Shown: positions 73 to 63,173, numbered from the stretch's first letter. The stretch is 63,173 bases of DNA from Alphaproteobacteria bacterium (GCA_017470585.1 JAFUYI010000006.1:1-63173); one strand, 5' to 3'. Notes: generated by a model not told the origin, from the letters alone. Translations and numbers: made by a program.

Positions 73-173
73 TCCCGATTATAAGGGGCGGTGCCTAAAT
101 TTCAGGAGATGCCTTGACCACCTGTGGAGGCATGACGGCGGGAGGAAGGCAAAAAAGGGAAGAAGCAAAAAGT

Positions 174-450: not shown

Positions 451-921
451 ATGAATAAATATATTTTAATGCTTGGCGTTGCCGGAGTTGCTCTTGGCAG
501 TTACGCAGCCTACGCGGGCAACTCGGCAACAATGACCGTAACAGCCACAATAGCTCATGATGTGAGCATAAATATTGAACAGGAAATGAGTTGCGGAACA
601 ATTACCATTGACCCATCGCAAAGTTTCGGTGCATGGGATTGCAATGATGATGATACTTCAAAAAACGGAGGTGTGATGTCCAAGAGCGGGACAAGAATTG
701 GCAAGATAAGTGCCAATGTTCCGGCAAGCGGATGGCATTGGACCATTACCAAAACCGATTTTCCTTCTCCGTTGGCATGGGCTGGAGGAACACCTGTAAT
801 ATCTGAGAATATTCAATCTGACGGTTTTTATCATGTATATGCATACATTGAATATAACACTGTTCCAGCAGAAGACGATTACAGTGCCACAATAACCGTA
901 AGTTATACTCCAGAAAGTTAG
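451..921 (+). CDS. Secreted DUF4402-like (pilin-like) protein, paralog P1
   Basis: 156 aa. Signal peptide MNKYILMLGVAGVALGSYAAYA, then GNSATMTVTATIAHDVS. C-terminus ..ATITVSYTPES. Belongs to the subtype without the CGGL motif. Confidence 0.9.
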   Translation: MNKYILMLGVAGVALGSYAAYAGNSATMTVTATIAHDVSINIEQEMSCGTITIDPSQSFGAWDCNDDDTSKNGGVMSKSGTRIGKISANVPASGWHWTITKTDFPSPLAWAGGTPVISENIQSDGFYHVYAYIEYNTVPAEDDYSATITVSYTPES

Positions 922-14906: not shown

Positions 14907-14988
14907 CTGTTATTTGTCCTTATTTGAGCGAATTTACTTTTATTGCTTTAAAATTGCAAGGAATATTTTAATTTTTTGCATTTTTTTA

Positions 14989-15242
14989 TTTACATTGCCG
15001 TTTTTTTATGTTAACTTGAAAAGCGAAGTGAGTGAAAAACCGCTTTGAGGTGTGGAAACCTCTTCTGGGACGTTTAGAAAAACGCAAAACTTCTGGCTGA
15101 TTATGGCCGGAAGGTCGGGGAATATAAAGAATACCCGGCACTGTCTCCCAGAGCAGTTTCCAACTTCCGACCACCTCGCGGGTTTTAATGCCCAGAAGGT
15201 GGTTTTTCTTTATAACGTTAATAAAAGAAGGAAGTTTATAAA
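14989..15242 (+). promoter_or_regulatory. Promoter and structured 5' leader, copy L2 (controls P2)
   Basis: -35 TTTACA 14989-14994, 17 nt, -10 TAACTT 15012-15017. P1 arms TGGAAAC (15053-59) and TCTGGGA (15064-70) pair with TCCCAGA (15146-52) and GTTTCCA (15156-62). P4 is GTCGG/CCGGC. Confidence 0.75.
15170..15210 (+). terminator. Intrinsic terminator (attenuator) inside leader L2
   Basis: ACCACCT/AGGTGGT stem followed by TTTTTCTTT. Confidence 0.7.
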
Positions 15243-18091: not shown

Positions 18092-18130
18092 GTTATACTA
18101 AAAAAATAAATATTTTTTATAACTTTTTGC

Positions 18131-18402
18131 TTGATTGACAATAAAACCTATGATATAGTTACTTTGAAACAGGGAAATCCTGTTTTGGGGTGTGATGACC
18201 TCGCAATTGACGTTTATAAAGAAAAACGTAAAAATTCTTCCTGCTATAAAATGGCCGGAAGGTCGGGAAATAGGGGATAACCTAATACTCGGCACTGGTT
18301 CAATTGTCAGTCATCAACTTCCGACCACCTCTAGGGTTTATGCCTCAAAAGGTGGTTTTCTTTTAATGTTAACAAAAAAGAATTATAAAGGAAGTAAGAA
18401 AG
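18131..18402 (+). promoter_or_regulatory. Promoter and structured 5' leader, copy L3 (controls P3)
   Basis: -35 TTGATT 18131-36, 17 nt, -10 TATAGT 18154-59. P0 is AAACAGG/CCTGTTT. P1 arms TGATGAC..CAATTGA pair with TCAATTG..GTCATCA. P2 is ACGTTT/AAACGT. Confidence 0.75.
18324..18364 (+). terminator. Intrinsic terminator (attenuator) inside leader L3
   Basis: ACCACCT/AGGTGGT stem followed by TTTTCTTTT. The loop sequence is identical to that of L7. Confidence 0.7.
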
Positions 18403-21400: not shown

Positions 21401-21670
21401 ATTCTTTACTTCCTTTATAATTTTCTTTTTCTGTTAACACTAAAAAGAAAACCACCTTTGGGCGTAAAACCCTGAAGGCGGTTGGAAGCTCAAAACTACT
21501 AACTGATGTAGTGCAAGGTATTCTTTATATTCCCCTGCCTTCCAACCATAAAGATCGGATATATACCGATTTACGTTTCGGTACAAACGTCAGTTACGAG
21601 GTTTTGAGACCTCAAAGCGGTTTTTCACTCGCTTCAAAGTCAATATAACATAAGTTTTATTGATTGGCAA
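21401..21670 (-). promoter_or_regulatory. Promoter and structured 5' leader, copy L5 (controls P4)
   Basis: On the minus strand: -35 TTGCCA (21665-70), 17 nt, -10 TATATT (21642-47). The leader starts at about 21635 (GAAGCGAGTG). P1 arms CTCAAAAC..TAACTGA pair with TCAGTTA..GTTTTGAG. There is an extra hairpin ATCGG/CCGAT. Confidence 0.75.
21442..21482 (-). terminator. Intrinsic terminator (attenuator) inside leader L5
   Basis: RNA ACCGCCT/AGGTGGT (one G-U pair) followed by TTTTCTTTTT. Confidence 0.65.
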
Positions 21671-21778
21671 GCAAAAAGTTATAAAAAAATTATAAAAATT
21701 AGCTCGTTGCCAAAAATATATATTGACAAATTTTGTCCAAAATGGTACCTTAAAACAGGTTTAACCTTGAGGTGCATT

Positions 21779-25506: not shown

Positions 25507-26826
25507 ATGATTGCTTTGCTATGGGCGTTCATGCTGCCCATAGCATCGTCTTTTGCCTTATCATTGATTTCCGATGAGGAAACGGAAGTGTTTTTAGCTG
25601 AAACCGTGCGCCCTCTTTTTTTGGCGGCAGGGCTTTCTTTTGATACAAGACGGATTTTTATTGTCAATGACAAAGCCTTAAACGCGTTTGTCAGTGATGG
25701 CAATAATATGTTTGTAACCTCAGGAACCATAATGAACGCAGACAGCCAAAACGAGCTTATGGGAGTTTTGGCGCACGAAACCGGTCATATTGAGGGCGGA
25801 CATATCTTACGTCATAAAATCAAGACCAGAGAAGTCGAAACAATAAGCCTTGCTTCCATGCTTTTGGGCGGTGCGGCAGGATTGGCGGCAGGGCGCGCCG
25901 ATGTGAGTTTGGCGGCGATTTTGGGGGCGCAGGGGCAAGCGTATGCCAGCCTTTTATCCTATCAGGTAAGCGAAGAGCGCAGTGCCGACGAAGCGGCGGT
26001 GAAACTCTTAAAACAAGTCAATCAATCTCCGCGCGGACTTTTTAATTTTATGAAAAAAATCCAAAAACAAAATACTTTGCAGGGGATTGAGGAAAGCAGT
26101 TATTTTCGCACCCATCCGGTAACAAGCGAACGTCTGTCTTTTTTGGAAAAGGCAACCCGTGATTATAAAGGTAATCCCGCAGGCAGAGAAGAAAATGATT
26201 TTTTGCGCGTTAAGGCAAAATTGTATGCGTATATAAGTGAGCCTAAAAAAACTTTTATTAAATACAAAGAAAATGACACTTCGATTCCCGCCCGATATGC
26301 TCGGACAATCGCTCATTTTAAGCAACTGAAAATGAAAGAGGCTCTTGCTGACATTCAAGGGTTGATTGAAGAAGAACCGAACAATCCCTATTTCTGGGAA
26401 TTAAAAGGGCAGATGTTGCTTGAAACCTCGCGCATTGCTCCGGCAGTTGAGGCTTATCGGCAGGCTTTGAAATTGCATCCCGATTCGGCAATTTTCAAGC
26501 TTAATTTGGCGCAGGCATTGTTGGAAAACTCGCCTGATGAGGCAACTCAAGGACAGATTGTCAATCTTCTTAATCAAGTTTTGATATACAATCCGAACAG
26601 TTATGCGTGGATATTGCTTTCTCGGGCATACGGTCTGCAAAAAGATGCGGCGGGTTATAATTATGCGGCGGCGCAGGCAAGCTTTTTAAGCGGAGATTTA
26701 CGCTTGGCAAAAAAACAGCTTCAACAGGCACTGCAATCCTCACCCTCGCAGGCAATTCGTCTTAAAGCCGATGATCTTATGCAGCGTATATCGGATGAAG
26801 AGAAAAAATCTGCGCAATCCCGCTGA
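25507..26826 (+). CDS. M48 family metalloprotease with TPR repeats (BepA-like)
   Basis: HETGHIEGGH zinc motif and a C-terminal TPR-like region. The start is uncertain (TTG at 25468 or ATG at 25507). Confidence 0.85.
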   Translation: MIALLWAFMLPIASSFALSLISDEETEVFLAETVRPLFLAAGLSFDTRRIFIVNDKALNAFVSDGNNMFVTSGTIMNADSQNELMGVLAHETGHIEGGHILRHKIKTREVETISLASMLLGGAAGLAAGRADVSLAAILGAQGQAYASLLSYQVSEERSADEAAVKLLKQVNQSPRGLFNFMKKIQKQNTLQGIEESSYFRTHPVTSERLSFLEKATRDYKGNPAGREENDFLRVKAKLYAYISEPKKTFIKYKENDTSIPARYARTIAHFKQLKMKEALADIQGLIEEEPNNPYFWELKGQMLLETSRIAPAVEAYRQALKLHPDSAIFKLNLAQALLENSPDEATQGQIVNLLNQVLIYNPNSYAWILLSRAYGLQKDAAGYNYAAAQASFLSGDLRLAKKQLQQALQSSPSQAIRLKADDLMQRISDEEKKSAQSR

Positions 26827-26834
26827 TTTTTTAC

Positions 26835-27100
26835 TTGATTTAAGCAAAAAACTGTTTTAGTATGAATCTTGAAGTGAAGAATTTTCACTTTGAGGTGTGA
26901 CAGCCCCTATCAAAGCGTTTTTAAGAAAAACGTAAAAATTCTTCCTGCTATAATGGTTGGAAGGCAAAGGAATAAGAGATACCTCAAATACTTTGCACTG
27001 TTCTTTGATACAGCTGTCAACTTCCAGCCACCTCGCGGAGTACATCTCCAACGGGTGGTTTCTTTTTATAACCGCAAAGAAACCATAAAAGGAAGTTTAG
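26835..27100 (+). promoter_or_regulatory. Promoter and structured 5' leader, copy L4 (controls divergent paralog P5)
   Basis: -35 TTGATT 26835-40, 17 nt, -10 TAGTAT 26858-63. P0 is AAGTGAA/TTCACTT. P1 arms TGACAGC..TATCAAAG pair with CTTTGATA..GCTGTCA. P4 is GCAAA/TTTGC with a distal GAG/CTC hairpin. Confidence 0.75.
27028..27067 (+). terminator. Intrinsic terminator (attenuator) inside leader L4
   Basis: CCACC/GGTGG stem with an inner GGAG/CTCC pairing, followed by TTTCTTTTT. Confidence 0.65.
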
Positions 27101-27655
27101 ATGACAAACAAAACTTTTTTAATTCTTTTATTATTAGGCGTATCATATACCGCCTATAATGTAAGCGCAGTGTCCGAAAATTTTGCAATCTCCACTACTA
27201 TCGACCACGAAATTGTTTTAAGCAATTTCAAAACCGCAAGTGCGGATGCAAATTTAGATGTAACCGGAAATATAAGCCTCGGCACAATTTACATTAACCC
27301 CAACGGAACCGAAGAGTCTTGGTGGTCTTATGATGATGCGGGGCAGGTTGCTGGTTTGAACGGAGATATTGTTGTTAAAGCTGATAACATCAATTTCGGT
27401 ACCTTTAGCGCAAATGTTTCCAATCCGCAAGCTTGCAACGGAAAAAGTACATCTTGTGCGGGTTTATCCACTCGGAGACATGTCGTGATGTTCGGGGCAA
27501 CGTATTGGTATGATAGTTATTGTAATTTTTACATAAAATACAGCGGGAGCGGCAATGTATTTAAGGTATTCCCGCATTGCATAATATACCATGTTTCATC
27601 TGTCAGCAGAGGCTATCACAGCCAGACTTTTGACATCTCCTATACGGCGGAATAA
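27101..27655 (+). CDS. Divergent member of the DUF4402-like family, paralog P5
   Basis: 184 aa. Keeps GTIYINP, GTFSANVSNPQAC..C.GL and ..TFDISYTAE. The signal peptide and N-terminal strand differ (VSENFAISTTIDHEIVL). Confidence 0.88.
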   Translation: MTNKTFLILLLLGVSYTAYNVSAVSENFAISTTIDHEIVLSNFKTASADANLDVTGNISLGTIYINPNGTEESWWSYDDAGQVAGLNGDIVVKADNINFGTFSANVSNPQACNGKSTSCAGLSTRRHVVMFGATYWYDSYCNFYIKYSGSGNVFKVFPHCIIYHVSSVSRGYHSQTFDISYTAE

Positions 27656-28996: not shown

Positions 28997-29247
28997 CTAA
29001 ACTTCCTTATCTATTGTTAACAAAGAAAATCACCCCGACAAATAGACGAGGTGATTGGAAGTTTCAGACTGTCATGTATAACAGTGTATGGTATTTGGTT
29101 GAAACCTTATTTCCATACCTTCCAACCATAATACGGTCAGAAGTAGTTTTATGTCTTTGCGGACAATACATGAGAGGTCTGAAAACCTCAAAGTGACCTT
29201 TCATTCACTTCATTTTCTACCCTAGCATAAAAAATCTTTTATGTAAA
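28997..29247 (-). promoter_or_regulatory. Promoter and structured 5' leader, copy L6 (controls P6)
   Basis: On the minus strand: -35 TTTACA (29242-47), 17 nt, -10 TAGGGT (29219-24). The leader starts at about 29211. P1 arms TTTCAGAC..TCATGTAT pair with ATACATGA..GTCTGAAA. P4 is GTATGG/CCATAC with a distal GGTT/AACC hairpin. The palindrome GCAAAATTTTGC lies at 29248-29259. Confidence 0.75.
29022..29055 (-). terminator. Intrinsic terminator (attenuator) inside leader L6
   Basis: RNA ATCACC/GGTGAT stem followed by TTTTCTTTG. Confidence 0.6.
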
Positions 29248-29333
29248 GCAAAATTTTGCACTTTTTGCTTTTCCTTTTTTTACTTCTCCTCCCGAGGTCA
29301 AGCCACCAATTGTCATCAATCCCGCCCCTTGTC

Positions 29334-33195: not shown

Positions 33196-33444
33196 CTAAA
33201 CTTCCTTATCTATTGTTAACAAAGAAAACCACCTTTTGAGGCATAAACCCTAGAGGTGGTCGGAAGCTCGAAACTGTGATGTAAAACAGTGCCGGGTATT
33301 CTTTATATTTCCCGACCTTCCAACCATAGCACGGTTAGAAACAATTTTATGTCTTGCCTGACATTACATCAGAGGCTTCGAGACCTCAAAGCGGTTTTTC
33401 ACTCACTTCAAAAAAAATATACCATAAGTTCTATGCAAAATCAA
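33196..33444 (-). promoter_or_regulatory. Promoter and structured 5' leader, copy L7 (controls P7)
   Basis: On the minus strand: -35 TTGATT (33439-44), 17 nt, -10 TATATT (33416-21). The leader starts at about 33409. P1 arms CTCGAAGC..TGATGTAA pair with TTACATCA..GTTTCGAG. The SD and spacer are identical to those of L6. Confidence 0.75.
33221..33260 (-). terminator. Intrinsic terminator (attenuator) inside leader L7
   Basis: RNA ACCACCT/AGGTGGT stem followed by TTTTCTTTG. Confidence 0.7.
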
Positions 33445-33622
33445 GCAAAAAGTTTTAGGCTTTAAAAAAATTTTTGATATTATGCAAAAAAAGCTTGAAA
33501 AATAAATATTTGCGTGTATAAAAAAGCTTAATTTGCGGCAAGGCGCGTTGCCGCAAAGGTTTTAACCCCGCGCAAGTCCGTCCGCAGCACAGCGGAAATG
33601 GCATTTTAACAAAGATTTTTTT

Positions 33623-38111: not shown

Positions 38112-38381
38112 ATTAAAACTTCCTTTCTTTAGTTTATTATAACTTTAATAAAAGAAACCACCTCTTGGAGTATTTCTCCGCGAGGTGGTCGGAAGTTCAC
38201 AACTATCAGTTATAATAGTCCTGCGTATTTGTGAAATCACTTATTTCGCAAGCTTCCGACCATAAGCCGGATACAAACCAAATAACGTTTTGGTAAACGA
38301 TAGCTGAGAGGTTGTGACACCTCAAAGCAGAATTTTCCCTGCTTCGATTTTTAAGCTAGCATAAAAAATCTTTTATGTCAA
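38112..38381 (-). promoter_or_regulatory. Promoter and structured 5' leader, copy L8 (controls P8)
   Basis: On the minus strand: -35 TTGACA (38376-81), 17 nt, -10 TAGCTT (38353-58). P0 is AAGCAG/CTGCTT. P1 arms TCACAAC..TCAGCTA pair with TAACTGA..GTTGTGA (one mismatch). P4 is CTTGCG/CGCAGG with a distal GTGA/TCAC hairpin. Confidence 0.72.
38151..38189 (-). terminator. Intrinsic terminator (attenuator) inside leader L8
   Basis: RNA ACCACCT/AGGTGGT stem with an inner GGAG/CTCC pairing, followed by TTTCTTTT. Confidence 0.7.
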
Positions 38382-38421
38382 AGAAAATTTATATTTTTTT
38401 TATTCGCGATCGATTCGCCGA

Positions 38422-42427: not shown

Positions 42428-42901
42428 TTAACTCGGAGTATAAGTAAAACGAACGGTTGAAGTATAGGTCGCTTCAGCAGGTACGGATTCGTATTTAATA
42501 CGCCCCTCAACAGGACAAGTGGTCGCTGTGCATTCAGCAGTGTGTACTCTAGGATCATTTTCATTGTGCCACGATACCGGTGCGGCAAAAGGGGTAACAA
42601 TTTCTTTTGTGAAACTGAAACCCGAAGCCGGAAAAGTCCCGACAATAGTTCCATACTGATCATCGGTTATTGATAATACTCCACCATCAAAGGTAGCCTG
42701 GACTATGCCAACGGCAATATTTCCTTCCGCGATACTCGGGTTGATGGTAACAGTGCCGAAGCTTAAAGGCTGTCCGACCGATAAACTCACATCGTGAGCA
42801 ATCGTTGCCGTTACGGTCATTGTTGCCGAATTGGTGGCATATGCGCAATATGAACCAAGCGCGACTGTTGCAACGCCTAACATTAAAAAATATTTATTCA
42901 T
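42428..42901 (-). CDS. Secreted DUF4402-like protein, paralog P9
   Basis: 157 aa. TNSATMTVTATIAHDVSL, GTVTINP, ..TVRFTYTPS. Belongs to the subtype without CGGL. Confidence 0.9.
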   Translation of the reverse strand: MNKYFLMLGVATVALGSYCAYATNSATMTVTATIAHDVSLSVGQPLSFGTVTINPSIAEGNIAVGIVQATFDGGVLSITDDQYGTIVGTFPASGFSFTKEIVTPFAAPVSWHNENDPRVHTAECTATTCPVEGRIKYESVPAEATYTSTVRFTYTPS

Positions 42902-43160
42902 TACAAAAACTTCCTTTTTTTATTAAAGTTATAATAAAGAAACCACCTTTTGGCTCTTGAAAGCCGCGAGGTGGCTGGAAGCTGACAACTGTTGTAAGGA
43001 ACAGTGTCGGGTATTCTTTATATTCCCCGACCTTCCAACCATAGAACGGTTAGAAGCAATTTTCTGTCTTGTTCGGACACCTTACAAGAGGCTGTCAGAC
43101 CTCAAAACGAAATTTTCTCCGTTTCGGAATTAAACTAGCACATTTTTAAACTTAAATCAA
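42902..43160 (-). promoter_or_regulatory. Promoter and structured 5' leader, copy L9 (controls P9)
   Basis: On the minus strand: -35 TTGATT (43155-60), 17 nt, -10 TAGTTT (43132-37). P0 is AAACG/CGTTT. P1 arms CTGACAGC..TTGTAAGG pair with CCTTACAA..GTTGTCAG (one G-U). P4 is GTCGG/CCGAC. Confidence 0.75.
42934..42975 (-). terminator. Intrinsic terminator (attenuator) inside leader L9
   Basis: RNA CCACCT/AGGTGG stem with an inner GGCT/AGCC pairing, followed by TTTCTTTATT. Confidence 0.65.
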
Positions 43161-43192
43161 GCAAAAAAATTAAATATCTTTATATAATGTCA

Positions 43193-51474: not shown

Positions 51475-52572
51475 ATGAAGAACAAAAAAATCGGATGGCT
51501 GGCGGGAGTTTTTGTAATTAGCGGCATTCTTTGGTATGCCGCATCATCTTTTAAGAAAGAAAATCCGCCGGAGTTAAAAGAAAAAGAGATTGAGGCCGTT
51601 GCCGTCAAAGCAGAAAATACACTCATTAAGAAGTCATATATCGGTTATGTTACCCCTGTAAACGCTGTTGATGTGCGCCCGCAAATAAGCGGTTTTATCA
51701 AAGAAGTTCTAATCTCCGGAGGACAAAAAGTTAAAGCCGGCGATAAGCTTTTGGTTATTGATCAAAGAAGTTATGAGGCAACACTTGAAGCCGTGTCGGC
51801 AGCGGCAGATAAAGCGTCTGCGGAATATCTTTTTGCCAAAGACTATTATGAGCGGGTGGAAAAAGCCGGAGATAAGGCTTTTTCTCTAAACGAAATCAAG
51901 GATGCCAAAACCAAATATCTGGCGGCACAGATGACATTAAAACAGGCTTTATCCGAGGTTAAAAAAGCCGAAGTTGATTTGAGCTATACCGTAATTTATG
52001 CCACTATTGACGGGATAAGCGGCAATATCGGGTTAAGCGTGGGCGATTATATTTCACCGCAGGCAAAGCTTTTTGAAATTATTCAAACCGATCCGATTCG
52101 CGTTGTGTTTTCCATCACCGATAAAGATTATTTAAGCGAAAGCAGACTTCCGAGAATGTTTGAAAACGAGAAAATAACCGTCACTCTTGCCGATGGCAGC
52201 ATATATCCTTATAAAGGGGTTTTCGGTTATGCCGACAATAAAATAGACCGTGCAACCAATGCCGTGGCAGTTTATGCCGATTTTGCCAACCCGAGAGGCG
52301 AGCTTATAAGCAATGCGTATGTTACGGTTGACATTGAAAAACAATACCGCGGCGTTGTAATTGCCAAAGATTTGGTTAACCTCAATCCGGAGGGCAATTT
52401 TGTTTATGTTGCGAAAAACGGCAAAATCAGCAGGCATACGGCGGAGATTGTGAGCGATTACGGCAATAATTATGTTTTAAACAATAATTTTACTGCAGAT
52501 ATGAGTTTGATTAAAAGCAAAATTACACCGCAAGACTTAATGCGCCCTTATAAAATAGTAAATCGCTCTTAA
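51475..52572 (+). CDS. Efflux RND transporter periplasmic adaptor subunit
   Basis: ..[34 protein letters not shown].. (biotinyl/lipoyl-like plus coiled coil). Confidence 0.9.
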
Positions 52573-52591
52573 AATCGGAGGTTGGATAAAG

Positions 52592-55500
52592 ATGTTTTCG
52601 CAGTATTTTATCAATCGCCCGCGTTTTGCCGCCGTCATCGCTATTGTGATGATAATGTTGGGATTGTTAGCCATTGCCGTCTTGCCGGTGTCGCAATATC
52701 CGCAGATAACTCCGCCGCAGGTCGTGGTTTCCGCTGCCTATCCCGGGGCAAGTGCGCAAGTCGTGGTTGATACAGTGGCAATTCCGATTGAAAACCAAAT
52801 CAACGGTGTTGAAAATATGCTGTATATGAGTTCAAGCGCAAATGATGAAGGGAGTTATAAATTAACCGTAACTTTTAAAATCGGAACCGATCCCGATATT
52901 GCACAGGTTAAAGTTCAGAACCGCCTCAATCAGGTAATGTCGCAACTTCCCGAAATTGTGCAGCAGCAAGGATTGGAAGTAACAACCCAAATATCAAATA
53001 TGTTGGCAATGCTGGTCTTGCGATCGCCAAATGAGAGCTTTGACAACCTTTATTTGAGTAACTTTGCCCACGCCAATCTTAAAAATCCCTTGGGACGTAT
53101 TGAGGGCGTGAGCAATGTGCAGATTTTCGGACCGCAATACAGTATGCGTGTTTGGCTCAATTCACCGAAAATTGCCTCATTAGGGTTAAACAGCACGGAC
53201 ATTATAAACAAGATAAAAATGCAAAATACACAGGCTTCATTGGGGAGTATCGGTTCCGCTCCTGCCGAGAGGGGCGAAAATATGGTTTTAAGCATAACCG
53301 CCAAGGGACTTTTAAACAGCGTTGAAGACTTTCGCAATATAACGGTTGCCACTTCTTCCGACGGCGGACTGGTTAAATTATCCGATGTTGCCAAAATTGA
53401 GCTGGGTGCCGACAGTTATACCATGAACGCTGCGTTTGATAATTCTCCGGCGGTGATAATGTCGTTAAGTCAGGCTCCGTCCTCCAATTCGCTGGAAATT
53501 ATGAAAGATGTTGCCGCAGAGATTGAGGAACTCTCTCAAACTTTCCCTGCGGATATGGAATTAAAAATTGCTTATGATTCAACTTCTTATGTTCGGGCTT
53601 CCATAGACGGTATTATTGAAACATTGGTTATTACTTTCCTGCTGGTGGTACTGGTAACTTATATTTTCTTGCAAAAAACCGCTACAACATTTATTCCTTT
53701 GATCACCATTCCGGTTTCATTGACGGCAACGTTTGCGGTTTTGTATGTTTTGGGGTTTGATATTAACATTTTAACCCTGTTTGCAATGATTTTGGCTATC
53801 GGCTTGGTGGTTGACGATGCCATAATTGTTGTGGAACGTGTGCAGTATCTGATGATTAGTGAAAAAATGGATTCACATGCCGCCTCCTTAAAGGCCATGA
53901 AACAAATCGGCAGCGCGGTGGTGGCAACGACTTTTGTGTTGCTCTCGATTTTTGTTCCGGTGGGACTGATGATAGGCATCACCGGCAAGATTTACCAGCA
54001 ATTTGCTGTTGCTATTTCGGCGGCAGTGGTCTTTTCGGCGTTCAATGCATTGACTTTGTCACCGGCACTGTGTGCCATTCTGCTCAAAAAAGACCATCCC
54101 GTTACCGGTATGCCGGCAAGATTTTTCTCTCTTTTTGACAAGACCATTGATTATTTTAAAAAACATTACTTGACTTTGGTTGAGTTTTTTGTTTCGCATA
54201 TTAAAATAACCGTTATCGTCACCATCATAGCCATAGCTTTGATGATTACCGGTTTGAGAATAATTCCGACATCATTTCTGCCGGAAGAGGACCAAGGCAT
54301 TATTTTCGGGGATATAAAACTTCCCGAAACCGCAAGTATGAATCAAACACAGGAATATCTCCAAAAAATCGGCGAAAAAGTGCAGAAAATTCCCGGAGTG
54401 GAATATTTTATAAGTGTTGCCGGATACAGTATGTTGGGAGGCTCCGGCGAAAATACCGCGCTTTTGGTGGCAGGCTTGAAGCCTTGGGATGAGCGCGACA
54501 GCGACGATATGTCGCTTGAAGCGATAAATCATAAATTAAGCTCCGAAATAGTTTCCGAAAACGGTACGGAAGTAAACTTTTTTGCTCCTCCGTCCATTCC
54601 CGGAATAGGTAACAGCGATGGTTTGAGCTTGGAATTTTTGGCTCTTGATGCTCAAGTTTCCTCAACGGAATTTTTTAACAATTTGGAGAAATTTTTGACC
54701 GCTCTCAATCAGAATCCCGCTCTTGATTATGCTTTCAGTGTATATGCCGATGATGCTCCGCATATTTACCTTGATATTGACCGCTTAAAACTTGAATCAT
54801 ACGGAATTGAGGTTGGAGATTTGTTCCAAGCTTTACAGAACAACCTCGGCTCGCGTTATGTTAACAATATAACTCTTTTCGGACAGGTTAATAAAGTTAT
54901 AGTGCAGGCTGATTTTGACTATCGCCGCGGGATTGAAGATGTTAAAAACCTTTACATTCGCTCATCTTCGGGGAATATGATTAAGCTGGAGAGTTTTGCC
55001 GATGTCAAAATTGCTTTATCACCCAAAATCATCAAACGCTATAATCAATATCAAGATGCTTCCGTTGTGGCACAAAGTGCAGCTTCCAAAAGCAGCGGCG
55101 AGGCAATCACCGCAGTCAAAGAAAGTGCCTCTCAAACCCTTAACCCCGAACAGTTCGGTATATCGTGGACGGGATTAAGCCTGCAGGAAGTTCAATCGCA
55201 AGGCTTGGTTTCATTTCTGATTATGCTTGCGCTTGCTTTCTGCTATTTGTTTTTGGTTGCGTTGTATGAAAGCTGGATGTTGGCGTTTGCGGTTATGTTC
55301 TCAACGATTTTTGCCATCTTGGGAGCCTTGTTCGGATTGTTTGTAACCAATCACCCGTTATCAATTTATGCCCAATTGGGATTGGTAATGTTAATAGGAT
55401 TAGCCGCCAAAAATGCGATTCTGATTGTTGAATTCAATAAAGACTACCGCGATAAGGGCGATTCAATACTGCAAGCCTCATTGAAAGGTGCCGGAGAACG

Positions 55501-55735
55501 TTTCCGCGCGGTTCTGATGACGGCTTTAACCTTTATTTTGGGCGTATTTCCCATGATTATCGCCCACGGTGCCGGTGCGGCAAGCCAGATAGCCATCGGT
55601 ACGGCTGTTTTCTATGGGATGATAGGGGCAACATTCGTGGGTATAATTTTTATTCCGGCATATTTTGCCTTGTTTGAACATATCAAAGAGTATTTTAACT
55701 CCGCAAAGGAGAGGGACAATGCTGAAAATCTGTAA
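52592..55735 (+). CDS. Efflux RND transporter permease (AcrB/HAE1 family)
   Basis: 1047 aa. [38 protein letters not shown]. Confidence 0.96.
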
Positions 55736-57095
55736 AATACTACCGCTTTTTTGGTTGATTTCCTGCACTCTCGGTCCGGAATATCAGGCTCAAGATTTTT
55801 TCGGCACTTCCGAGCCTCAAAATACAATCACGATTAGCCGGCAATGGTATAAAGTGTTTGCCGATGAAAAGCTTAATTCCTTGATTGAGGAGGCATTAAG
55901 ACGTTCACCCGATGTTAAAATCGCTATATCAAGATTACAACAGGCGAGGTATCTGCTGGAAATTAAAAAAGTTGATTATTTTCCTAAAGTTGACGGTGCT
56001 GCCGCCTATAATTATGCGTTTGCGCCCGAGTACGGCGAAACAGGCAGCTCCGGCAGTTATTTTAAACTCGGACTTGATGCGGTTTGGGAGCTTGATATAT
56101 GGGGTAAGGGGCGCAGGCAAACCCAAAGATATGCCGCCCTCTATCAGGCTTCAATAAATAATTTGGAAAACACATCTTTGACTTTGGCGGCTGAAGTTGC
56201 CAACAATTATGTTTTATTGCGCACCACGCAGGAACAACTGCGGATTGCCGAAGAAAACCTTAAAACCGAGCGGGAAATTTTACAGGCGGTACAAAAAAAA
56301 TACCAAAACGGTATGAGTGATGAAACGGCCTTACAACAGGCAGAATTTGCACTTCAGACTACTCAATCAACGATTCCTGTGCTTCAATACCGGAAATCGG
56401 CTTATGAAAATGCGATTTTGTTGCTTTGCGGCAGGATTCCCGATGATAAAAATGATTTGGAAAATATAAAGGGCGGACTTGATGTCAGAAACTTTCGGAT
56501 TGATTACCTTAAATTAAAGCAAACACCGCTGAATGTAATTCGTAACCGTCCCGATGTTAAAGCCGCCGAACAGCAGCTTATTGCCAAAAATGCCGCCATA
56601 GGTGAGGCAATAGCGGCAATGTTTCCCTCCGTCGGATTAAGCGCGCTCTTGGGACGGCAGGCGCATACGGTTAAATCTTTGGATAATTCCCGACAGGCTT
56701 CTTACGGATATGCCGCCGATATTACGACTCCGCTTTGGCATTGGGGAGAGATGCTGAAGCAGGTAAAATTAAGCCGTGCCGAGAAGGAAGAATATTTTTA
56801 TCTTTACCAAAACAGTGTGTTGACGGCGGCAAACGAACTGCAGAACAGTTTGAATGCCCTCGAACAGGAAATAAAGCGGCGGGAGCTGTTGCAAAAAGCC
56901 GCCTTGAGCATGGAAAAGATATTAAAAAGCCAACGTCTTAAATATGATGAAGGTTTAATTGAGTTCAGTGATCTGCTTTATTCCGAACAAAACCTTTTGA
57001 AATCCCGAGACGATTTGGCGCAAAGTTTCGGAGCGGTATGCCAAAATCTTATCGGATTCTATAAATCCGCCGGCGGAGGTATGGGTAATCCTTGA
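55719..57095 (+). CDS. Efflux transporter outer membrane factor lipoprotein (NodT family)
   Basis: Lipobox LFWLISC. Two OEP repeats. RBS AAGGAGAGGG. The start overlaps the pump gene by 17 nt. Confidence 0.9.
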
Positions 57096-57283
57096 AAAAA
57101 ACTTCGGGCAAAAACTTTCAAAAGCCCGCAACCGCCTAAAAATCAAGGCAATTTGTTTATAAGTGGGATTTTTTTATAAAAAAAGTATAATTTTTGTTGA
57201 CATCTTTTCAGATATAAGCCAAAATAAGCTCTGGGAAAATATAATTTAGACCGAATTTTATTTTTGAGAGAGCGAAGATAGAG

Positions 57284-58219
57284 ATGAAGATTAAGAACTT
57301 ATTGCCTTTGCTTGGAATATTAGGCGTTTTCGCATATCCTTGCCGCGCCGCCGTAACAACCGATTCGGTGACGGTGGATTTTGGTAAAATATATCAGCTT
57401 TTAAGTACGGCCTCAATTACTTTGGGGTATTCCGGAGAGCCTGCGCTTGCCGGAGCCGCTAAATCCTCAAGCTATACATACGCAGCCGGAACGGCGATTT
57501 TTAAGACGGACAACACAGACCCTGGCGTTGTTGAAACAATTGTTCCGAATGCGGAAACAGCAAGCGGCGTTATCAGCGGAACCAACTGCACCATAGAGGT
57601 TTCCAATGTTACTTTCAATCCGGCGGGTGTAGAGCTTACTGCGGCGGCGCAAACCCAAAACGTCACCGTCGGTGCCAAATTGAGCTTTTCCGGATTCTGC
57701 CGTGAAGGGACTTATAACGGAACTTTGAGCTTGCCTTATTCCATAACCCGAGGCGATTCTACTGCGGATGCTTCAACGCCGGTTAATATTCCCTTGACCA
57801 TCCAGATTGAGGAGCCGTTGAGCATTACCAAAGACAGCGAAATAAAATTCGGTAATGTTACCATTAACCCGATAAAGGCCGGAACGGTTGTTCTGTCTCC
57901 CGAAGGAACCGTTACCGCCAGTGACGGTATCAGTGTCGCCGGGGGAACGTATGCGGCGGGATCTGCTGTTATTAAGGGAGTCGGAGGCAGAACGGTTAAT
58001 ATCTCTCTTTCTGGTGATTCTGCGACTTTGAACGGAGTAAACGGCGGAACCATTATCGTGAACAATTTTAAAACCAGTCCTTCCGGTAGCTCGTTTACAT
58101 TGAGCGGGAGCGGGGCTGATGCCGAGCAAGAATTTAAAATCGGCGGTACCATGAATGTAGGAGTCGCTCAAAAGAAAGGCACCTACACCGGTAGTATAAC
58201 AGTTACTGTGGCTTATTAG
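57284..58219 (+). CDS. Secreted protein with two tandem DUF4402-like domains (candidate tip or major subunit)
   Basis: Signal peptide ..FAYPCRA|AVTT. Domain 2 is EIKFGNVTINP...GGTMNVGVAQKKGTYTGSITVTVAY. It shares the G(N/T)(V/I)TINP motif with the ten paralogs. Confidence 0.85.
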   Translation: MKIKNLLPLLGILGVFAYPCRAAVTTDSVTVDFGKIYQLLSTASITLGYSGEPALAGAAKSSSYTYAAGTAIFKTDNTDPGVVETIVPNAETASGVISGTNCTIEVSNVTFNPAGVELTAAAQTQNVTVGAKLSFSGFCREGTYNGTLSLPYSITRGDSTADASTPVNIPLTIQIEEPLSITKDSEIKFGNVTINPIKAGTVVLSPEGTVTASDGISVAGGTYAAGSAVIKGVGGRTVNISLSGDSATLNGVNGGTIIVNNFKTSPSGSSFTLSGSGADAEQEFKIGGTMNVGVAQKKGTYTGSITVTVAY

Positions 58220-58241
58220 TTTATAAGGAGAAAAAATTAAA

Positions 58242-59072
58242 ATGATAAAAAGACTTTTAATTACGTTGTTGTTGGTTAGTGCTTTTGCGACTCGTACGAG
58301 TGCCAATATCGGCGTTTTCCCGCAATCGGTAGATTTTGATGACAGTTCCAAAAAACGTTCTCAAACATTAAATGTTGTAAATCACTCGGATCACCCGCAG
58401 ACATACCGTGTCAGCGTTATCCAATATACTCAAGATGAAGACGGCAAATATACGGAAGTTGAAACAGCTCCGAATGCTGCCGCCAAATATCTGGTTTTTT
58501 CTCCGAAGCAATTCACGATTCGCCCCGGTAAAATTCAGGCTGTTCGCATTGCTCGTAAATCTCTCGGACAATTAAAAGACGGCGAATATGTATCGCACAT
58601 TAAAATCAGTGAAGTTGAAATGCCCAAAGTAAAGACTGCGGAAGATGAAAAGAAAGCCGCCGAGGCTAAAAAAGCCGCTGAAGAGGGCAATAATGAGGAA
58701 GCTGAAGATGAGGAAGAAACCGAAAGACAGCTTTCATTCTCTTTGAAGACGCTGTTTGCCATGAGTATTCCGGTTACTATCTATAAAGGTAATAATTTGG
58801 AACAAAAGACCTCTATTGAGAGTGTCAAGGTGAACGGCGATAAGGTTGATGTTGTATTAAAACGTCAAGGACAGATTTCATCGCGTGTAAACGTTGTTGT
58901 TTTGGACACTAAAGGCAATGAAATCGGCCGCAACGGTCCGTTGCGTATTTATACACCGAACGGAAAACGTAATGTATCCGTTCAACTGGACAAAGAAGCA
59001 AAAACTAAACCGGCTATTATAAGACTTGAAAATGCAGTTACAAAGAAAGAAATCCTGCAGAAACAAATCTAA
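58242..59072 (+). CDS. PapD-like periplasmic pilus chaperone
   Basis: Signal peptide, then IGVFPQSVDFDDSSKKRSQTLNVVNHSDHPQTYRVSV..FSPKQFTIRPGKIQAVRI.. A charged insert lies before the candidate G1 strand LSFSLKTLFAMSIPVTIY. Confidence 0.7.
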   Translation: MIKRLLITLLLVSAFATRTSANIGVFPQSVDFDDSSKKRSQTLNVVNHSDHPQTYRVSVIQYTQDEDGKYTEVETAPNAAAKYLVFSPKQFTIRPGKIQAVRIARKSLGQLKDGEYVSHIKISEVEMPKVKTAEDEKKAAEAKKAAEEGNNEEAEDEEETERQLSFSLKTLFAMSIPVTIYKGNNLEQKTSIESVKVNGDKVDVVLKRQGQISSRVNVVVLDTKGNEIGRNGPLRIYTPNGKRNVSVQLDKEAKTKPAIIRLENAVTKKEILQKQI

Positions 59073-62000
59073 ACTTCTGTTTAGACTGTTATTGCTGCTC
59101 TCTGCTCTGCCGTTGGTTGCACACGCGGAAGATGATACTGCCGTGCAGCCGCAGCAGGCGGAACCCGAGGCTGCGCCTCAAGAGATTGACAACTATGTTC
59201 CCGAAGATGAGGAGTTGATTTTTGAAACTTCGACTCAAGGTTACATGGAGGAAGATTATCTCTATGCGTACAACCAAAAAGGAAAGGTCTTTTTGCCTTT
59301 TTCACAGGTGTCGGCTTTTCTGGGTATTATGTATGATCAACAAAATAAGGTGCTTACCGCTTGGTACAGCAATGAACCTGCGCATAAGTACATCATTGAT
59401 CTCAATACCTACACCGCCAGTGATGACGGTAAGCCGGTCGCTTTTTCGGCATCGGACTATAAGTTCATTGAAGGAACAATGTTCTTCGATGTTAATTTTA
59501 TTTCGACATTGTTCGGATTTGAGACCAAGTACGACTTCTATGATATGAAGATTTCCTTTGACCGTGAACGCGAATTTCCGACCATGGTTAAACGTAATGC
59601 CGATGCTCGCCGTCAGAAGAGCCGAGGCGTTCAGTTCGCCGACCGCAGTTATAAGGACTACGAAAAAGATGAACGTTGGATCGGTTCTCCGGTGATTGAC
59701 TTGCAAGTCGGTAAAAACTGGTCGCATAACAAAGGCGGAAAAACCACCAATAGTGATAACTATGCGGTTAACATTTCAACCATTGCCGCCGGTGTCGATG
59801 TCAACAGCTATATTTCCGGATCTTCATCCGACGGACATAAACCTCGTTTCCGTTTTAACGGCGGACGTACGTTGCTTGATGACGGTGACACACCGCTGAA
59901 TTTGCGTCAATATAAGTTCGGTGATATTACCGGTATCGGCAGTTCTTACTTTACGGATGCCAGCTACGGACGCGGTGCCAGCTTCTCGAGCTTTAAAAAC
60001 TTGGTTTTGAGTGCGGATAAGACAATTGACATTGTCGGTCCCTTGGCGGAAGGATGGGAAGTTGAGCTGTATTGGAACGGGCAGTTGTTAGGTTATCGTC
60101 AAAACAGCATTAACGGCGAATATAACTTTGCTAAAATCCCTGTTTCCTACGGGTTGAACACATTTAAACTTGTTTTCTACGGTCCGTACGGTGAAGTCCG
60201 CACCGAAGAAAAACGTTACTACTCCGGTACTTCTCCGGTTCACAAGGGCGAGTTCGGCTATAATGTTGCCGCTTATCAGCCTTGGCGTTATTTGGTTGAA
60301 GAAAATGAGCCCAATACCTATGACGGCAAAGATATTCCTGTTTTAGACAGTACATTCTATTACGGTGCCACCGATGACTTGACGGTTATGGGCGGATATA
60401 CGCAAACTCCGGATGCCGAAACCAAAGAAGATACCCAGCATTTCGGTATGGCAGGTTTCCAATACGCCATCAAAGGTAGTTCGGTTCAATATAACTTGGA
60501 AACTAACCTTGATACCGAAAAGAGCGGACACCATGTTGAGTGGCAGGGTGATGTTTACATCGGAACGGTTTACGCTTCGTATGATAAATACAATTCTGTT
60601 CATTCGCCTGTATCATATTCCGGTAACGAGTACTTAAAAGACAAGACCGAGTTCCGTTTCAGCGGAAGCACTCCGTGGGCTTTGCCTTATTATGTAAGTT
60701 ACCGCACCGGAAAGAAAGAAAGCGGTGATGAAACTTACAAAGACATCGTTGCTCGTGTTTCCAAGAGCTTGGAGGGATGGTATCTCTCCTTGGAGGACAC
60801 TTATGATGCTCTGAATTACCGCAATGTTATCAGTCCGCGTGTTTATAATCACTGGGGCAACTTCTCTTGGGAAAACTCTCTTGAATATCGTTCCAACCCG
60901 GATCCGGATTTCACGGATTTTACTTCCAAGCTGACATGGCGTGAAGACCGCTATACTTATTATACAGCGCAATATCGCCGTGATTTGGAAGAAGATATGG
61001 ATTATTATTCGCTTTCCGGAGCGAGAATCTTCCCGTTCGGCGGTCTGTCTTTGACATTGCAGATGGATAAAAAGAAAAACTTCTCCAGTTATTTAACTTA
61101 TAATATCAGCTTTGCCAAAGAGCCTGGTCATGCCAATGTTATCACTTCGGCTAACTCCAAGTTGAGCGGCACGGGTTCAATCTATGTAACCTTGCACGAT
61201 GATGAGGGCAATCCTTTAGAGGGTGTCGGTTTGACAGCCAGCAACTTGGTTAAGGAAGTTTACACCGATGAAAACGGTGCGGCGTTCTTGACCGACTTGA
61301 GTGCTAATGAAAAGACCATTTTGACGGTTGATATGGAAACTTTGGAGGATGTATCCTTAAAGCCTGATGCCGAAGTTAAGAAATTGGTTTTGCGCCCCGG
61401 CACACTGCGTGAGATTGATATTTCATTCAGTCACTATGCGTCGGTTGAAGGACAAATTGCTAACCCGCACGGCAAACGCCTGTATGGTTACAAAGTTGCC
61501 GCTGTTGATGCGGAAGGCAACGAAGTTACTTCTAACTTCTCGGATTTGGAAGGTTACTTCATTGTCAGTGATGTTCCTTACGGTACTTATGACTTTATTG
61601 TTTCGAAGGACGGTAAGACCTTGGCGGAAATCAAGGATGTTAAGGTTGATGACATTGAAATTGCGCTTGATGATGTTTACACCAAAGAGGCAATGCGTCC
61701 CGGCAGCGGTATAGAAGCAGGAGCTTTGTTCGAGTCGGATGAAAGCGAGAACTACCTCACTACGACCAACCCGGATGAGGAAGAGGAAAATTCTGCGGCA
61801 GATGAAGATAATGCCAAAGAAGATAAGAGTACCTCTAACGACAGCTTCTATGATTATTGGCTCGGACACAATCAATGGAATATGGCGGAAAATAGAGACA
61901 CCGCTCCCGTAATCGGACAGACCCCGTATGTTGGACAATGCCTGCGCGAACCGAAAATGGTATCACAGCAAATCGGCATTACTCCGATCAACTTTGCCGA

Positions 62001-62376
62001 GGTTTACCAAAACAACGGCAAATGGCTCAAGTCTGCATCACGCAGTGCACCGGCAAAATGGATCGACGCACAGCGTTTGACACCGGCACGTTGGATAAAT
62101 GCTTATCGCTATACTCCGGCTCTGTGGATACACGCCGATCGCGAAACATCGGCTCGTTGGATAAATGCTTACCGTTATACTCCGGCGAGATGGATCAACG
62201 CTTTCCGTTACGCTCCGGCAGCATGGATTCATGCTTATCGCTATGCACCGGCAACATGGATTCAGGCGTACCGCTACGCACCTGCGGCATGGATACACGC
62301 CTACCGCTTTGCGCCGGCTCGTTGGATAAATGCGGATGCCGAGACCAAATCGGTTAAACGTCCGACCAAGGCATAA
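59032..62376 (+). CDS. Large outer-membrane usher-like protein with CarboxypepD_reg-like domains and a C-terminal 11-aa repeat array
   Basis: 1114 aa from the ATG at 59032. Signal peptide LLFRLLLLLSALPLVAHA. The Tyr/Gly-rich central part looks like a beta-barrel. Two segments resemble carboxypeptidase-regulatory-like domains (GSIYVTLHDDEGNPLEGV.., GQIANPHGKRLYGYKV..). The position after the chaperone gene supports an usher role. Confidence 0.6.
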   Translation: MQLQRKKSCRNKSKLLFRLLLLLSALPLVAHAEDDTAVQPQQAEPEAAPQEIDNYVPEDEELIFETSTQGYMEEDYLYAYNQKGKVFLPFSQVSAFLGIMYDQQNKVLTAWYSNEPAHKYIIDLNTYTASDDGKPVAFSASDYKFIEGTMFFDVNFISTLFGFETKYDFYDMKISFDREREFPTMVKRNADARRQKSRGVQFADRSYKDYEKDERWIGSPVIDLQVGKNWSHNKGGKTTNSDNYAVNISTIAAGVDVNSYISGSSSDGHKPRFRFNGGRTLLDDGDTPLNLRQYKFGDITGIGSSYFTDASYGRGASFSSFKNLVLSADKTIDIVGPLAEGWEVELYWNGQLLGYRQNSINGEYNFAKIPVSYGLNTFKLVFYGPYGEVRTEEKRYYSGTSPVHKGEFGYNVAAYQPWRYLVEENEPNTYDGKDIPVLDSTFYYGATDDLTVMGGYTQTPDAETKEDTQHFGMAGFQYAIKGSSVQYNLETNLDTEKSGHHVEWQGDVYIGTVYASYDKYNSVHSPVSYSGNEYLKDKTEFRFSGSTPWALPYYVSYRTGKKESGDETYKDIVARVSKSLEGWYLSLEDTYDALNYRNVISPRVYNHWGNFSWENSLEYRSNPDPDFTDFTSKLTWREDRYTYYTAQYRRDLEEDMDYYSLSGARIFPFGGLSLTLQMDKKKNFSSYLTYNISFAKEPGHANVITSANSKLSGTGSIYVTLHDDEGNPLEGVGLTASNLVKEVYTDENGAAFLTDLSANEKTILTVDMETLEDVSLKPDAEVKKLVLRPGTLREIDISFSHYASVEGQIANPHGKRLYGYKVAAVDAEGNEVTSNFSDLEGYFIVSDVPYGTYDFIVSKDGKTLAEIKDVKVDDIEIALDDVYTKEAMRPGSGIEAGALFESDESENYLTTTNPDEEEENSAADEDNAKEDKSTSNDSFYDYWLGHNQWNMAENRDTAPVIGQTPYVGQCLREPKMVSQQIGITPINFAEVYQNNGKWLKSASRSAPAKWIDAQRLTPARWINAYRYTPALWIHADRETSARWINAYRYTPARWINAFRYAPAAWIHAYRYAPATWIQAYRYAPAAWIHAYRFAPARWINADAETKSVKRPTKA
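62053..62349 (+). repeat. Nine in-frame 33-bp tandem repeats (consensus A-x-W-I-x-A-Y-R-Y-x-P)
   Basis: AKWIDAQRLTP ARWINAYRYTP ALWIHADRETS ARWINAYRYTP ARWINAFRYAP AAWIHAYRYAP ATWIQAYRYAP AAWIHAYRFAP ARWINADAETK. Confidence 0.95.
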
Positions 62377-62454: not shown

Positions 62455-63000
62455 TTAGCTTTCCGGAGTGTAAGAGATGGTCAAAGTTCCCGAATGCGAA
62501 CCGGGGGTAACTTTGGAAATTTTTCCCTCTAATATAGTGCAATCATAGCAACGTACCTCAAAGCCGTTTTCTGATCCACTGTATTTTAAAGCAAAGTTAC
62601 ATATACTAGTATTATCACTTCCTCCGAAAATATTAAGAATACCATTAGAACCATCATTTCCTTCAACCTTTAATCCTCCGCAATAATCAATTGGCGCATC
62701 GCAAGCTGACGGATTGGGGATATTAGCAGTAAAAGTGCCGATAGTTGCATTATCTGCTGTGACAAGGGCATCTCCATAGTCAACACTGGGTACACCAGAA
62801 TCGTTGTAACTCCATTCTGTTTCTTCGGTTGCTGACGGGTTAATGGTAATAGTTCCAAGGCTTATATCGCCGGTTTTGGTCAAACTCACATCATGAGCAA
62901 TCGTTGCCGTCACGGTCATTGTGGCGGAATTGCCTGCGTATGCGCAATAACTGCCTATGGAAACCGCGGCAATGCCGAGCATTAAAATATAATTTTTCAT
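62455..63000 (-). CDS. Secreted DUF4402-like protein, paralog P10
   Basis: 181 aa. Same N-terminal strand, GTITINP, CDAPIDYCGGL, ..GTLTISYTPES. Confidence 0.92.
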   Translation of the reverse strand: MKNYILMLGIAAVSIGSYCAYAGNSATMTVTATIAHDVSLTKTGDISLGTITINPSATEETEWSYNDSGVPSVDYGDALVTADNATIGTFTANIPNPSACDAPIDYCGGLKVEGNDGSNGILNIFGGSDNTSICNFALKYSGSENGFEVRCYDCTILEGKISKVTPGSHSGTLTISYTPES

Positions 63001-63173
63001 ATTAAAAACTTCCTTCTTTTATTAACGTCATAAAGAAAAACCACCTTTTGGGACGTATCCCGCGAGGTGGTCGGAAGCTCTAAACTGACACTTGAATCAG
63101 TGCAAAGTATTTGAGGTATCTCTTATTCCTTTGCCTTCCGGCCATTATAGCAGGAAGAATTTTTACGTTTTTC
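63001..63173 (-). promoter_or_regulatory. Structured 5' leader, copy L10 (its 5' part is cut off by the window edge)
   Basis: Contains P2 (..AAACGT), P3, P4 (GCAAA/TTTGC, identical to L4), 3' P1 arms ..TTCAAGTG..GTTTAGAG, then CTTCCGACCACCTC and the terminator. Confidence 0.7.
63032..63071 (-). terminator. Intrinsic terminator (attenuator) inside leader L10
   Basis: RNA ACCACCT/AGGTGGT stem followed by TTTTTCTTT. Confidence 0.7.

Follow-up and report, generated by a model that had tools for sequence, protein, structure and literature searches.

Does the compact 3-gene locus at positions 57284–62376 of contig JAFUYI010000006.1 from an Alphaproteobacteria bacterium (GCA_017470585.1) encode a fiber-assembly machine, and does this machine serve the 10 DUF4402-like genes scattered along the same DNA? 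The whole stretch of 63,173 nucleotides (nt) that was analyzed is referred to here as the window. The 3 genes encode, in order, a secreted protein of 311 amino acids (aa) with DUF4402 domains, a 276-aa PapD-like protein, and a 1114-aa outer-membrane protein. The locus is probably an operon for a sequence-divergent chaperone–usher (CU) fiber-assembly pathway with DUF4402 subunits and, judging from homology, synteny, and sequence pattern, this triad most probably assembles the 10 orphan paralogs. The CU mechanism class is already well known; the new part is a CU clade that has diverged in sequence and has a pilin family of its own.

The 3 genes look like an operon because a gap of 22 nt separates the subunit gene from the chaperone gene and the usher gene begins within the chaperone gene, with an overlap of 41 nt. 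The third gene has an alternative start at an in-frame TTG (59026), 2 codons upstream of the usher start. The translations of all 3 genes begin with Sec-type signal peptides. The 3 open reading frames (ORFs) are co-oriented and tightly packed, as described in an earlier note on this DNA.

AlphaFold2 modeled the 1114-aa protein from an alignment with 36 homologues and was confident over residues 55–880. The model includes (i) a mixed alpha/beta N-terminal domain (NTD); (ii) a barrel of 6 long strands (residues 221–319) and 18 further strands (residues 408–696), the total of 24 being read off the DSSP list and not off the coordinates; and (iii) a 7-strand insertion of approximately 75 residues between these 2 groups of strands. 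In PapC, the plug likewise lies between strands 6 and 7. The usher plan comprises 5 domains, namely the NTD, a 24-strand pore, a plug, and 2 C-terminal domains (CTD1 and CTD2) (PMC11459180), and the 1114-aa protein, as modeled, fits this plan. Foldseek comparison of the model with the PDB revealed that the top 18 matches were all FimD/PapC structures (E 2e-29 to 6.5e-15), with full-length chains aligned over 700–900 columns; the full-length FimD and PapC alignments that bear on the 5-domain plan covered 880–900. The FimD/PapC translocation domains 3ohn and 2vqi matched with E values of 1.6e-17 and 2.4e-17, and the matches beyond the top 18 were unrelated sandwiches and porins (E ≥ 8e-11).

Profile–profile alignment (hhalign) of the 47-member usher family with a profile of 7 ushers (FimD, Agg3C, MrkC, CstB, a Serratia usher, PefC, and FaeD) gave a probability of 98.4% (E 9e-15) over 614 colinear columns, which run from the end of the NTD through the barrel and plug to CTD1. 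The most conserved block of the family, GWEVELY...G.Y.F.NIP...G.N.FKLVFYGP.GE, coincides in this alignment with the classical plug motif (GxYxFxNIP...G.N.FKLVFYGP.GE in the family versus VPPGPFxIxD...GdLxVxVxExDG in classical ushers). On the basis of the fold matches and the colinear profile–profile alignment, the 1114-aa protein is a true but remote homologue of the classical ushers; its earlier description as a barrel with a plug is borne out.

The remoteness of this homology is evident in direct sequence searches. The window usher matched none of the Pfam models Usher (PF00577, none at E ≤ 0.1), PapC_N, and PapC_C; Pfam reported CarboxypepD_reg-type segments only (residues ~725–766 and 806–876), and NCBIfam reported nothing. 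PF00577 was matched at E < 0.01 by 1 of the 47 diverse family members, and a few homologues gave borderline colinear matches, the best of which (P0050) scored 27.5 bits against a cut-off of 27.1. Searches of solved structures with the single sequence and with a HMMER profile found no usher or pilin, the sole sequence match being that of the transthyretin-like C-terminal sandwich to SdrD and NOMO. Alignment of the usher family profile with the single FimD sequence was not significant (3.4%), and the 7-usher profile was needed.

The earlier note considered the usher atypical in carrying 2 carboxypeptidase-regulatory-like segments near the C-terminus, and longer than FimD-type ushers, with a terminal repeat. 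The 2 segments are present, but they occupy the places of the usher CTD1 and CTD2 and are followed by approximately 230 residues, so they are not at the C-terminus. The repeat is real, but the extra length comes from a disordered tail peculiar to the lineage, and the family core (846–910 aa) has about the length of FimD (878 aa). The tail of the window usher is acidic and disordered, and it carries an aromatic, proline-containing 11-residue unit, WI[NHQD]A[YFDQ]R[YFLE][TA][PS]A. (WINAYRYTPAR-like), which has a predicted local distance difference test (pLDDT) score below 35 in the model and a 33-nt period in the DNA (62083–62318). Neither the disordered tail nor the repeat occurred in any of 120 homologues. 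In many homologues, the place of the tail is taken by OmpA, SPOR, or LysM domains or by acidic low-complexity or repeat sequence; these domains suggest a putative attachment to the cell wall, and the OmpA, SPOR, and LysM tails fit usher C-termini being periplasmic.

The AlphaFold2 model of the 276-aa protein (pLDDT 83.9) consists of 2 β-sandwich domains folded as in the periplasmic chaperones of CU systems. The top Foldseek matches were CU chaperones only, the best being CfaA (4y2o; E 2.6e-11, template modeling score 0.67 on the target) and CsuC (5d6h; E 3.3e-11), and the further matches included Caf1M, YadV, DraB, FimC, FaeE, SafB, and PapD, aligned over approximately 260 columns and both domains. 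Ranks 10–14 were taken by the Enterococcus protein WxLIP. The best matches are non-classical (alternative and archaic) chaperones, and the resemblance to PapD-like chaperones claimed earlier for this product holds at E values of 2.6e-11 and weaker. The protein passes the Pfam cut-off for PapD_N marginally (24.0 bits, cut-off 23) and also matches fn3_5 (29.3 bits, cut-off 27.6); 12 of 17 chaperone homologues match PapD_N, with a best E value of 1.6e-6. No chaperone was found in solved structures with the single sequence or a HMMER profile, and hhalign of the chaperone family profile with the single FimC sequence was not significant (1%).

A highly acidic, disordered insertion of approximately 45 residues (residues ~126–172; DNA 58617–58757, + strand) separates the strands read as F1 (residues 114–125) and G1 (residues 173–182) of the chaperone. 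It is rich in Lys, Glu, and Ala, and close homologues differ in its length by more than 30 residues. To our knowledge, this F1-G1 loop is far longer than that of any solved CU chaperone. Invariant residues include P88, which lies at the break between the short strands 84–87 and 90–93; K182 at the end of G1; and R208 and Y237, which lie 29 residues apart in domain 2. One proline is the sole residue invariant across all CU chaperones (PMC4654587), and P88 may be its counterpart. The subunit carboxylate is anchored by Arg8/Lys112 in classical chaperones and by a domain-1 Arg together with a domain-2 Arg/Tyr pair in non-classical chaperones (PMC4654587). R208 and Y237 may recall this two-domain anchor, which we regard as a lead only. 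The domain-1 strand-F arginine typical of non-classical chaperones has no obvious counterpart in the window chaperone, whose F1 strand has H/R119 only.

The 311-aa protein matched Pfam DUF4402 (PF14352) in 2 stretches (E 4.7e-30; 105.3 bits, cut-off 25.2). It contains FGNVTINP and ends in GTYTGSITVTVAY, in agreement with the earlier account of a secreted protein with 2 tandem DUF4402-like domains. The protein is a tandem duplication in which the motif G.Y.G...Y closes each half, and the two-domain layout is kept in relatives, as taken from syntenic loci. A profile of mature DUF4402 proteins, built from operon-encoded members of other genomes, matched domain 2 at positions 8–138 and domain 1 at positions 19–133 only. 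Therefore, domain 1 starts without the N-terminal strand of single-domain members, in which this strand follows the signal-peptide cleavage site and precedes the FG motif. The CU subunit without an N-terminal extension is the tip adhesin. Because its mature N-terminus has no extension strand, the 311-aa protein is proposed as a putative tip or initiator subunit; the tip logic of FimH/FimG appears in PMC11459180. A word-indexed search found a single homologue of this protein, with 27% identity.

The gene arrangement was compared in a scan of one genome per species, which found relatives in at least 269 genomes; ORFs were called in the 80 returned loci and scored with profiles, and synteny was counted in the 64 loci whose upstream sequence extends for 3 kb or more. 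The chaperone gene lay directly upstream of the usher gene in 63 of these 64 loci, and at least 1 DUF4402 gene lay within 8 kb in 63 (median 3, maximum 6). The conserved order is [DUF4402]n–chaperone–usher. In an exhaustive profile search (E ≤ 1e-30), the usher family comprised 2,873 clusters at 50% identity, and the source annotation of its members reads "hypothetical," "carboxypeptidase regulatory-like," or "prealbumin-like." A Halopseudomonas metagenome-assembled genome (MAG) has one DUF4402 gene, the chaperone gene, and the usher gene in the same order, and a Rickettsiales endosymbiont has 5 single-domain DUF4402 genes, a 289-aa two-domain gene, a chaperone gene, and an usher gene. Gut Alphaproteobacteria MAGs repeat the window layout, including the convergent small gene downstream. 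The closest relatives of the window are rumen and gut MAGs (63–67% identity). In the operons of the closest relatives L005–L007, the chaperone and usher genes are likewise accompanied by the two-domain gene alone; scattered major-subunit genes are thus characteristic of this sub-lineage. Cultured carriers include Novosphingobium sediminis NBRC 106119, N. acidiphilum DSM 19966, Kiloniella majae M56.1, and Erythrobacter sp. GH1-10, and the other carriers include a Hepatincolaceae symbiont, sphingomonads, and marine Gammaproteobacteria.

Two further observations concern the distribution of the operon. Close operon homologues occur in 3 MAGs labeled Elusimicrobiota (L028), Bacteroidales (L035), and Elusimicrobium (L078), with usher identities to the window of 33–38% (24% for L078); their presence in gut MAGs of other phyla reflects either horizontal transfer or binning error. 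In Novosphingobium and other sphingomonads, 9 loci (L048, L049, L051, L052, L060, L064, L075, L076, and L082) have 6 tandem DUF4402 genes upstream of the chaperone gene. The usher ORFs of these 9 loci extend approximately 300–400 residues beyond the family core at the N-terminus, which may be an artefact of choosing the first start codon.

All 10 paralog genes scattered over the window are real and encode single-domain, DUF4402-like proteins. By hhalign, they match operon-encoded DUF4402 proteins with a probability of 96.7% (E 3.7e-10). A DUF4402 profile made without the window sequences found 9 of the 10 paralogs with signal peptides included, and 5 of the 10 when signal peptides were removed from the profile and the ORFs; in both runs, it found no window ORF outside the family. 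Their membership of the family, assumed earlier, is therefore sustained by hhalign and the custom profile, but none of them reaches Pfam DUF4402. In the relative L003, the gene in the same place as the paralog downstream of the usher gene passes that model (26.2 bits, cut-off 25.2). The N-terminal strand MTVTATIAHD, which has alternating hydrophobic residues and lies outside the Pfam domain, is the best conserved part of the paralogs (92% column identity), followed by the strands GTITINP and TLTISY; the middle of the proteins is conserved at 25–55%. Such a pattern would be expected if a single chaperone, and the acceptor grooves of the other paralogs, had to accommodate each of the 10, with variable surfaces left exposed. 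One paralog (42428–42901) gave a sub-threshold match of its C-terminal strands to SCPU (PF05229; 19.5 bits, cut-off 22.4). The possibility that the paralogs are lipoproteins was rejected from the alignment, where the cysteine is preceded by a tyrosine and followed by an A-x-A site for signal peptidase I.

A conserved structured leader of approximately 230 nt precedes all 10 paralogs. Its core of approximately 145 nt comprises 3 stems followed by an intrinsic terminator, and 13 of the 32 predicted pairs have compensatory changes. Rfam gave no family match anywhere in the window, the leader included. The covariance model of the leader found 2 credible copies in 42 related loci, which precede a 77-aa helix-turn-helix-like ORF (L040:17536–17666, +; 59 bits) and a family-2 glycosyltransferase gene (L036:22210–22351, −; 25.8 bits). 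The leader was also considered as a marker of the DUF4402 pilin family; this was rejected, as neither of the 2 copies precedes a DUF4402 gene. Because these copies precede unrelated genes, the leader looks like a more general, undescribed cis-regulatory RNA that is not specific to DUF4402.

The surroundings of the operon agree in most respects with what the earlier note had stated. The nhmmer search with the leader profile recovered the 10 copies of the window and none in the intergenic region upstream of 57284, so the triad has no structured leader of the paralog type. The window contains one chaperone homologue and one usher homologue; the earlier note had called the locus the sole place where a family member adjoins assembly-type genes, the 10 paralogs having no chaperone or usher of their own. 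The description of an ordinary promoter region held in part: the TTGACA hexamer is present, but at 57197–57202 and not at 57198–57203, and promoter-like sites near the operon are no commoner than in shuffled sequences (12 found versus 10.4 ± 3.0 expected). Directly upstream and co-oriented lies a resistance-nodulation-division (RND) efflux-like operon (51475–57095, +) with ORFs of 365 aa and 1047 aa and a 476-aa NodT-type outer-membrane factor (TIGR01845, E 9e-78), the last being the sole RND-like ORF that was checked against family libraries. No clear terminator was found between the RND-like operon and the fiber operon. The coordinates of the features are listed in Table 1.

Table 1. Features of the window and of the encoded proteins (nt positions count from the first letter of the window; residues count within each protein).
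Feature	Position	Strand	Length or details
Intergenic region upstream of operon	57096–57283	+	188 nt; TTGACA at 57197–57202, 17 nt, then CAAAAT
Two-domain DUF4402 subunit gene	57284–58219	+	311 aa
Signal peptide of subunit	residues 1–22		
Domain 1 of subunit	residues ~23–165		
Linker strand of subunit	residues ~166–178		
Domain 2 of subunit	residues 179–311		
Chaperone gene	58242–59072	+	276 aa
Usher gene	59032–62376	+	1114 aa
Usher NTD	residues ~55–180 (61–177 in the secondary-structure map)		
Usher barrel	residues 221–696		
Usher plug	residues ~324–398		
Usher CTD1	residues ~715–790		
Usher CTD2	residues ~791–880		
Usher disordered tail	residues 881–1114		
Repeat array at usher C-terminus	62059–62340	+	residues 1010–1103; 8 full and 1 partial copies of 11-residue unit
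Convergent single-domain paralog	62455–63000	−	181 aa; 78 nt downstream of usher stop; proposed fiber subunit
Leader copy	156–436	+	
Leader copy	14958–15240	+	
Leader copy	18101–18392	+	
Leader copy	26803–27101	+	
Leader copy	21414–21692	−	
Leader copy	28998–29278	−	
Leader copy	33197–33476	−	
Leader copy	38114–38403	−	
Leader copy	42906–43188	−	
Leader copy	63003–63172	−	

Among known systems, the archaic (sigma) CU pathways (Acinetobacter Csu, Pseudomonas CupE, and Myxococcus Mcu/spore coat protein U) share with the window locus an operon that encodes small, secreted, β-rich subunits and a tip subunit of 2 domains together with an usher and a chaperone of the PapD fold, as well as a broad distribution outside enterobacteria. 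CsuC is one of the 2 best structural matches of the window chaperone, and the weak resemblance of one paralog to the SCPU C-terminal strands, below the cut-off, points in the same direction. By contrast, (i) the window operon subunit belongs to DUF4402 and does not qualify as SCPU; (ii) the window usher is unrecognized by PF00577, PapC_N, and PapC_C; (iii) a tandemly duplicated pilin domain makes up the two-domain subunit, whose gene lies upstream of the chaperone gene, whereas csuE follows the usher gene; and (iv) the major-subunit genes of the window lineage are scattered around the genome. The alternative (alpha, class 5) systems CFA/I and ECP are approached through CfaA, the best structural match of the window chaperone, and R208/Y237 may recall the CfaA anchor Arg154/Tyr182 (PMC4654587) when compared by sequence and not in three dimensions. 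They differ in having no sequence-level match to the window proteins and in the strand-F arginine of domain 1, which the window chaperone does not obviously have.

The classical FimD/PapC ushers and the window usher have in common the 24-strand barrel, the plug after strand 6, the aligned plug motif, the periplasmic NTD, and the 2 periplasmic C-terminal sandwiches. However, their identity to the window usher family is approximately 13%, the family NTD is Cu_amine_oxidN1-like, CTD2 scores as CarboxypepD_reg and not as PapC_C, and many family members add a periplasmic tail (OmpA, SPOR, LysM, or acidic low-complexity sequence; in the window, the 11-residue repeat). The suggestion in the earlier note of a poorly characterized DUF4402-type pathway rather than a classical pilus is thus upheld: the Pfam usher models miss the usher, and the best chaperone matches are non-classical. 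Searches of open full-text papers found no mention of "DUF4402" or "PF14352" and nothing describing this family. The Microcystis tubular pilus, also considered, is unrelated to it.

In the proposed mechanism, the chaperone would cap DUF4402 subunits in the periplasm by donor-strand complementation through its G1 strand, at about residues 164–182, and the domain-2 residues R208 and Y237 may hold the subunit's C-terminal carboxylate, as in non-classical chaperones. The two-domain 311-aa protein, having a mature N-terminus without an extension, would be the first to enter the usher and would form the tip. Subunits with a single domain would then be added by donor-strand exchange through their N-terminal strand (ATMTVTATIAHDVSL). 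The 10 paralogs would be alternative, individually regulated major subunits of one machine, since their N-terminal strand is nearly invariant and their middles are variable, and the periplasmic tail of the usher would be a lineage-specific add-on. Assembly of the orphans by the triad is supported by the fact that most relatives keep single-domain DUF4402 genes inside the operon. It is also possible, and we put this forward tentatively, that the locus represents an unrecognized CU clade outside the 6 described fimbrial clades, with DUF4402 as its pilin, and that in gut Alphaproteobacteria the major-subunit genes moved into a multigene family, each behind a riboswitch-like terminator leader, so that one machine would produce switchable fibers of varying antigen or function.

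Several observations weigh against an operon that builds DUF4402 fibers from all of these subunits. None of the 10 paralogs reached the threshold of Pfam DUF4402 at E ≤ 0.05, and they end in Y-T-P-E(S) and not at the family-typical C-terminal tyrosine, which could affect carboxylate anchoring. Solved structures gave no sequence match to the DUF4402 profile; the incomplete immunoglobulin (Ig) fold, and the part of the N-terminal strand as donor, are therefore deduced from sequence patterns only. The usher NTD resembles Cu_amine_oxidN1 in 13 of the 47 family members, and not PapC_N, so the first docking step at the usher may differ from the classical one. Other assembly loci could exist outside the 63-kb window. 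The locus was found in gut metagenome sequencing runs, and the runs that hold its sequence are DNA only, with no RNA run among them. In a narrower explanation, the triad is a CU machine for its own two-domain protein, perhaps together with the adjacent convergent paralog, and the other 9 paralogs are independent secreted, periplasmic, or surface proteins sharing ancestry. The weak similarity of the paralogs to bona fide DUF4402 proteins, their C-termini running past the terminal tyrosine, their leader-based regulation, which the triad does not share, and the presence of the leader before unrelated genes in relatives are all consistent with it. We nevertheless consider it unlikely, because most relatives encode single-domain subunits in the operon and a machine without a major subunit would be odd; in the closest relatives, too, no subunit gene other than the two-domain one accompanies the chaperone and usher genes, and the N- and C-terminal strands are the best conserved parts of the paralogs, as expected for donor and acceptor elements.

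The nature of the product and of the machine can also be read differently. Long-loop (FGL) chaperones build thin polyadhesins and capsules, and the exceptionally long F1-G1 loop of the window chaperone, together with Caf1M and the non-classical CsuC and CfaA among its best matches, would suit a product that forms an amorphous coat, a layer resembling a capsule, or a polymer that is thin and flexible, comparable to the F1 capsule of Yersinia (Caf1) or the spore coat protein U system of Myxococcus. A non-pilus product appears quite improbable; a conserved two-domain subunit without an N-terminal strand looks like a tip adhesin, which would imply an ordered fiber. Mere convergence of the outer-membrane protein on the usher shape, as a porin or import channel beside an Ig-fold neighbor that is not a chaperone, would account for the failure of HMMER profile searches of solved structures to yield an usher or chaperone and for the non-significant alignments with the single FimD and FimC sequences. 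This explanation is hardly credible in view of the colinear profile–profile homology over 614 columns, the agreement of strand count and plug position with those of ushers, the specific fold matches of the chaperone, and the near-universal linkage to chaperone and Ig-like subunit genes. A divergent CU operon with DUF4402 subunits remains our preferred reading.

With this reading, DUF4402 gains a concrete, testable function as a fiber subunit, and chaperone and usher roles are assigned to thousands of proteins now labeled hypothetical, carboxypeptidase regulatory-like, or prealbumin-like. The CU pathway is extended to lineages without such annotation, namely gut and rumen Alphaproteobacteria, a Rickettsiales endosymbiont, a Hepatincolaceae symbiont, sphingomonads, and marine Gammaproteobacteria. 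A relative so distant, with a different NTD, wall-binding tails, and a very long F1-G1 loop, helps to ask which features of ushers and chaperones are essential, and the cultured carriers make direct experiments possible. In the window lineage, one machine and 10 separately regulated subunit genes may constitute a surface-variation system in an abundant, uncultured gut lineage.

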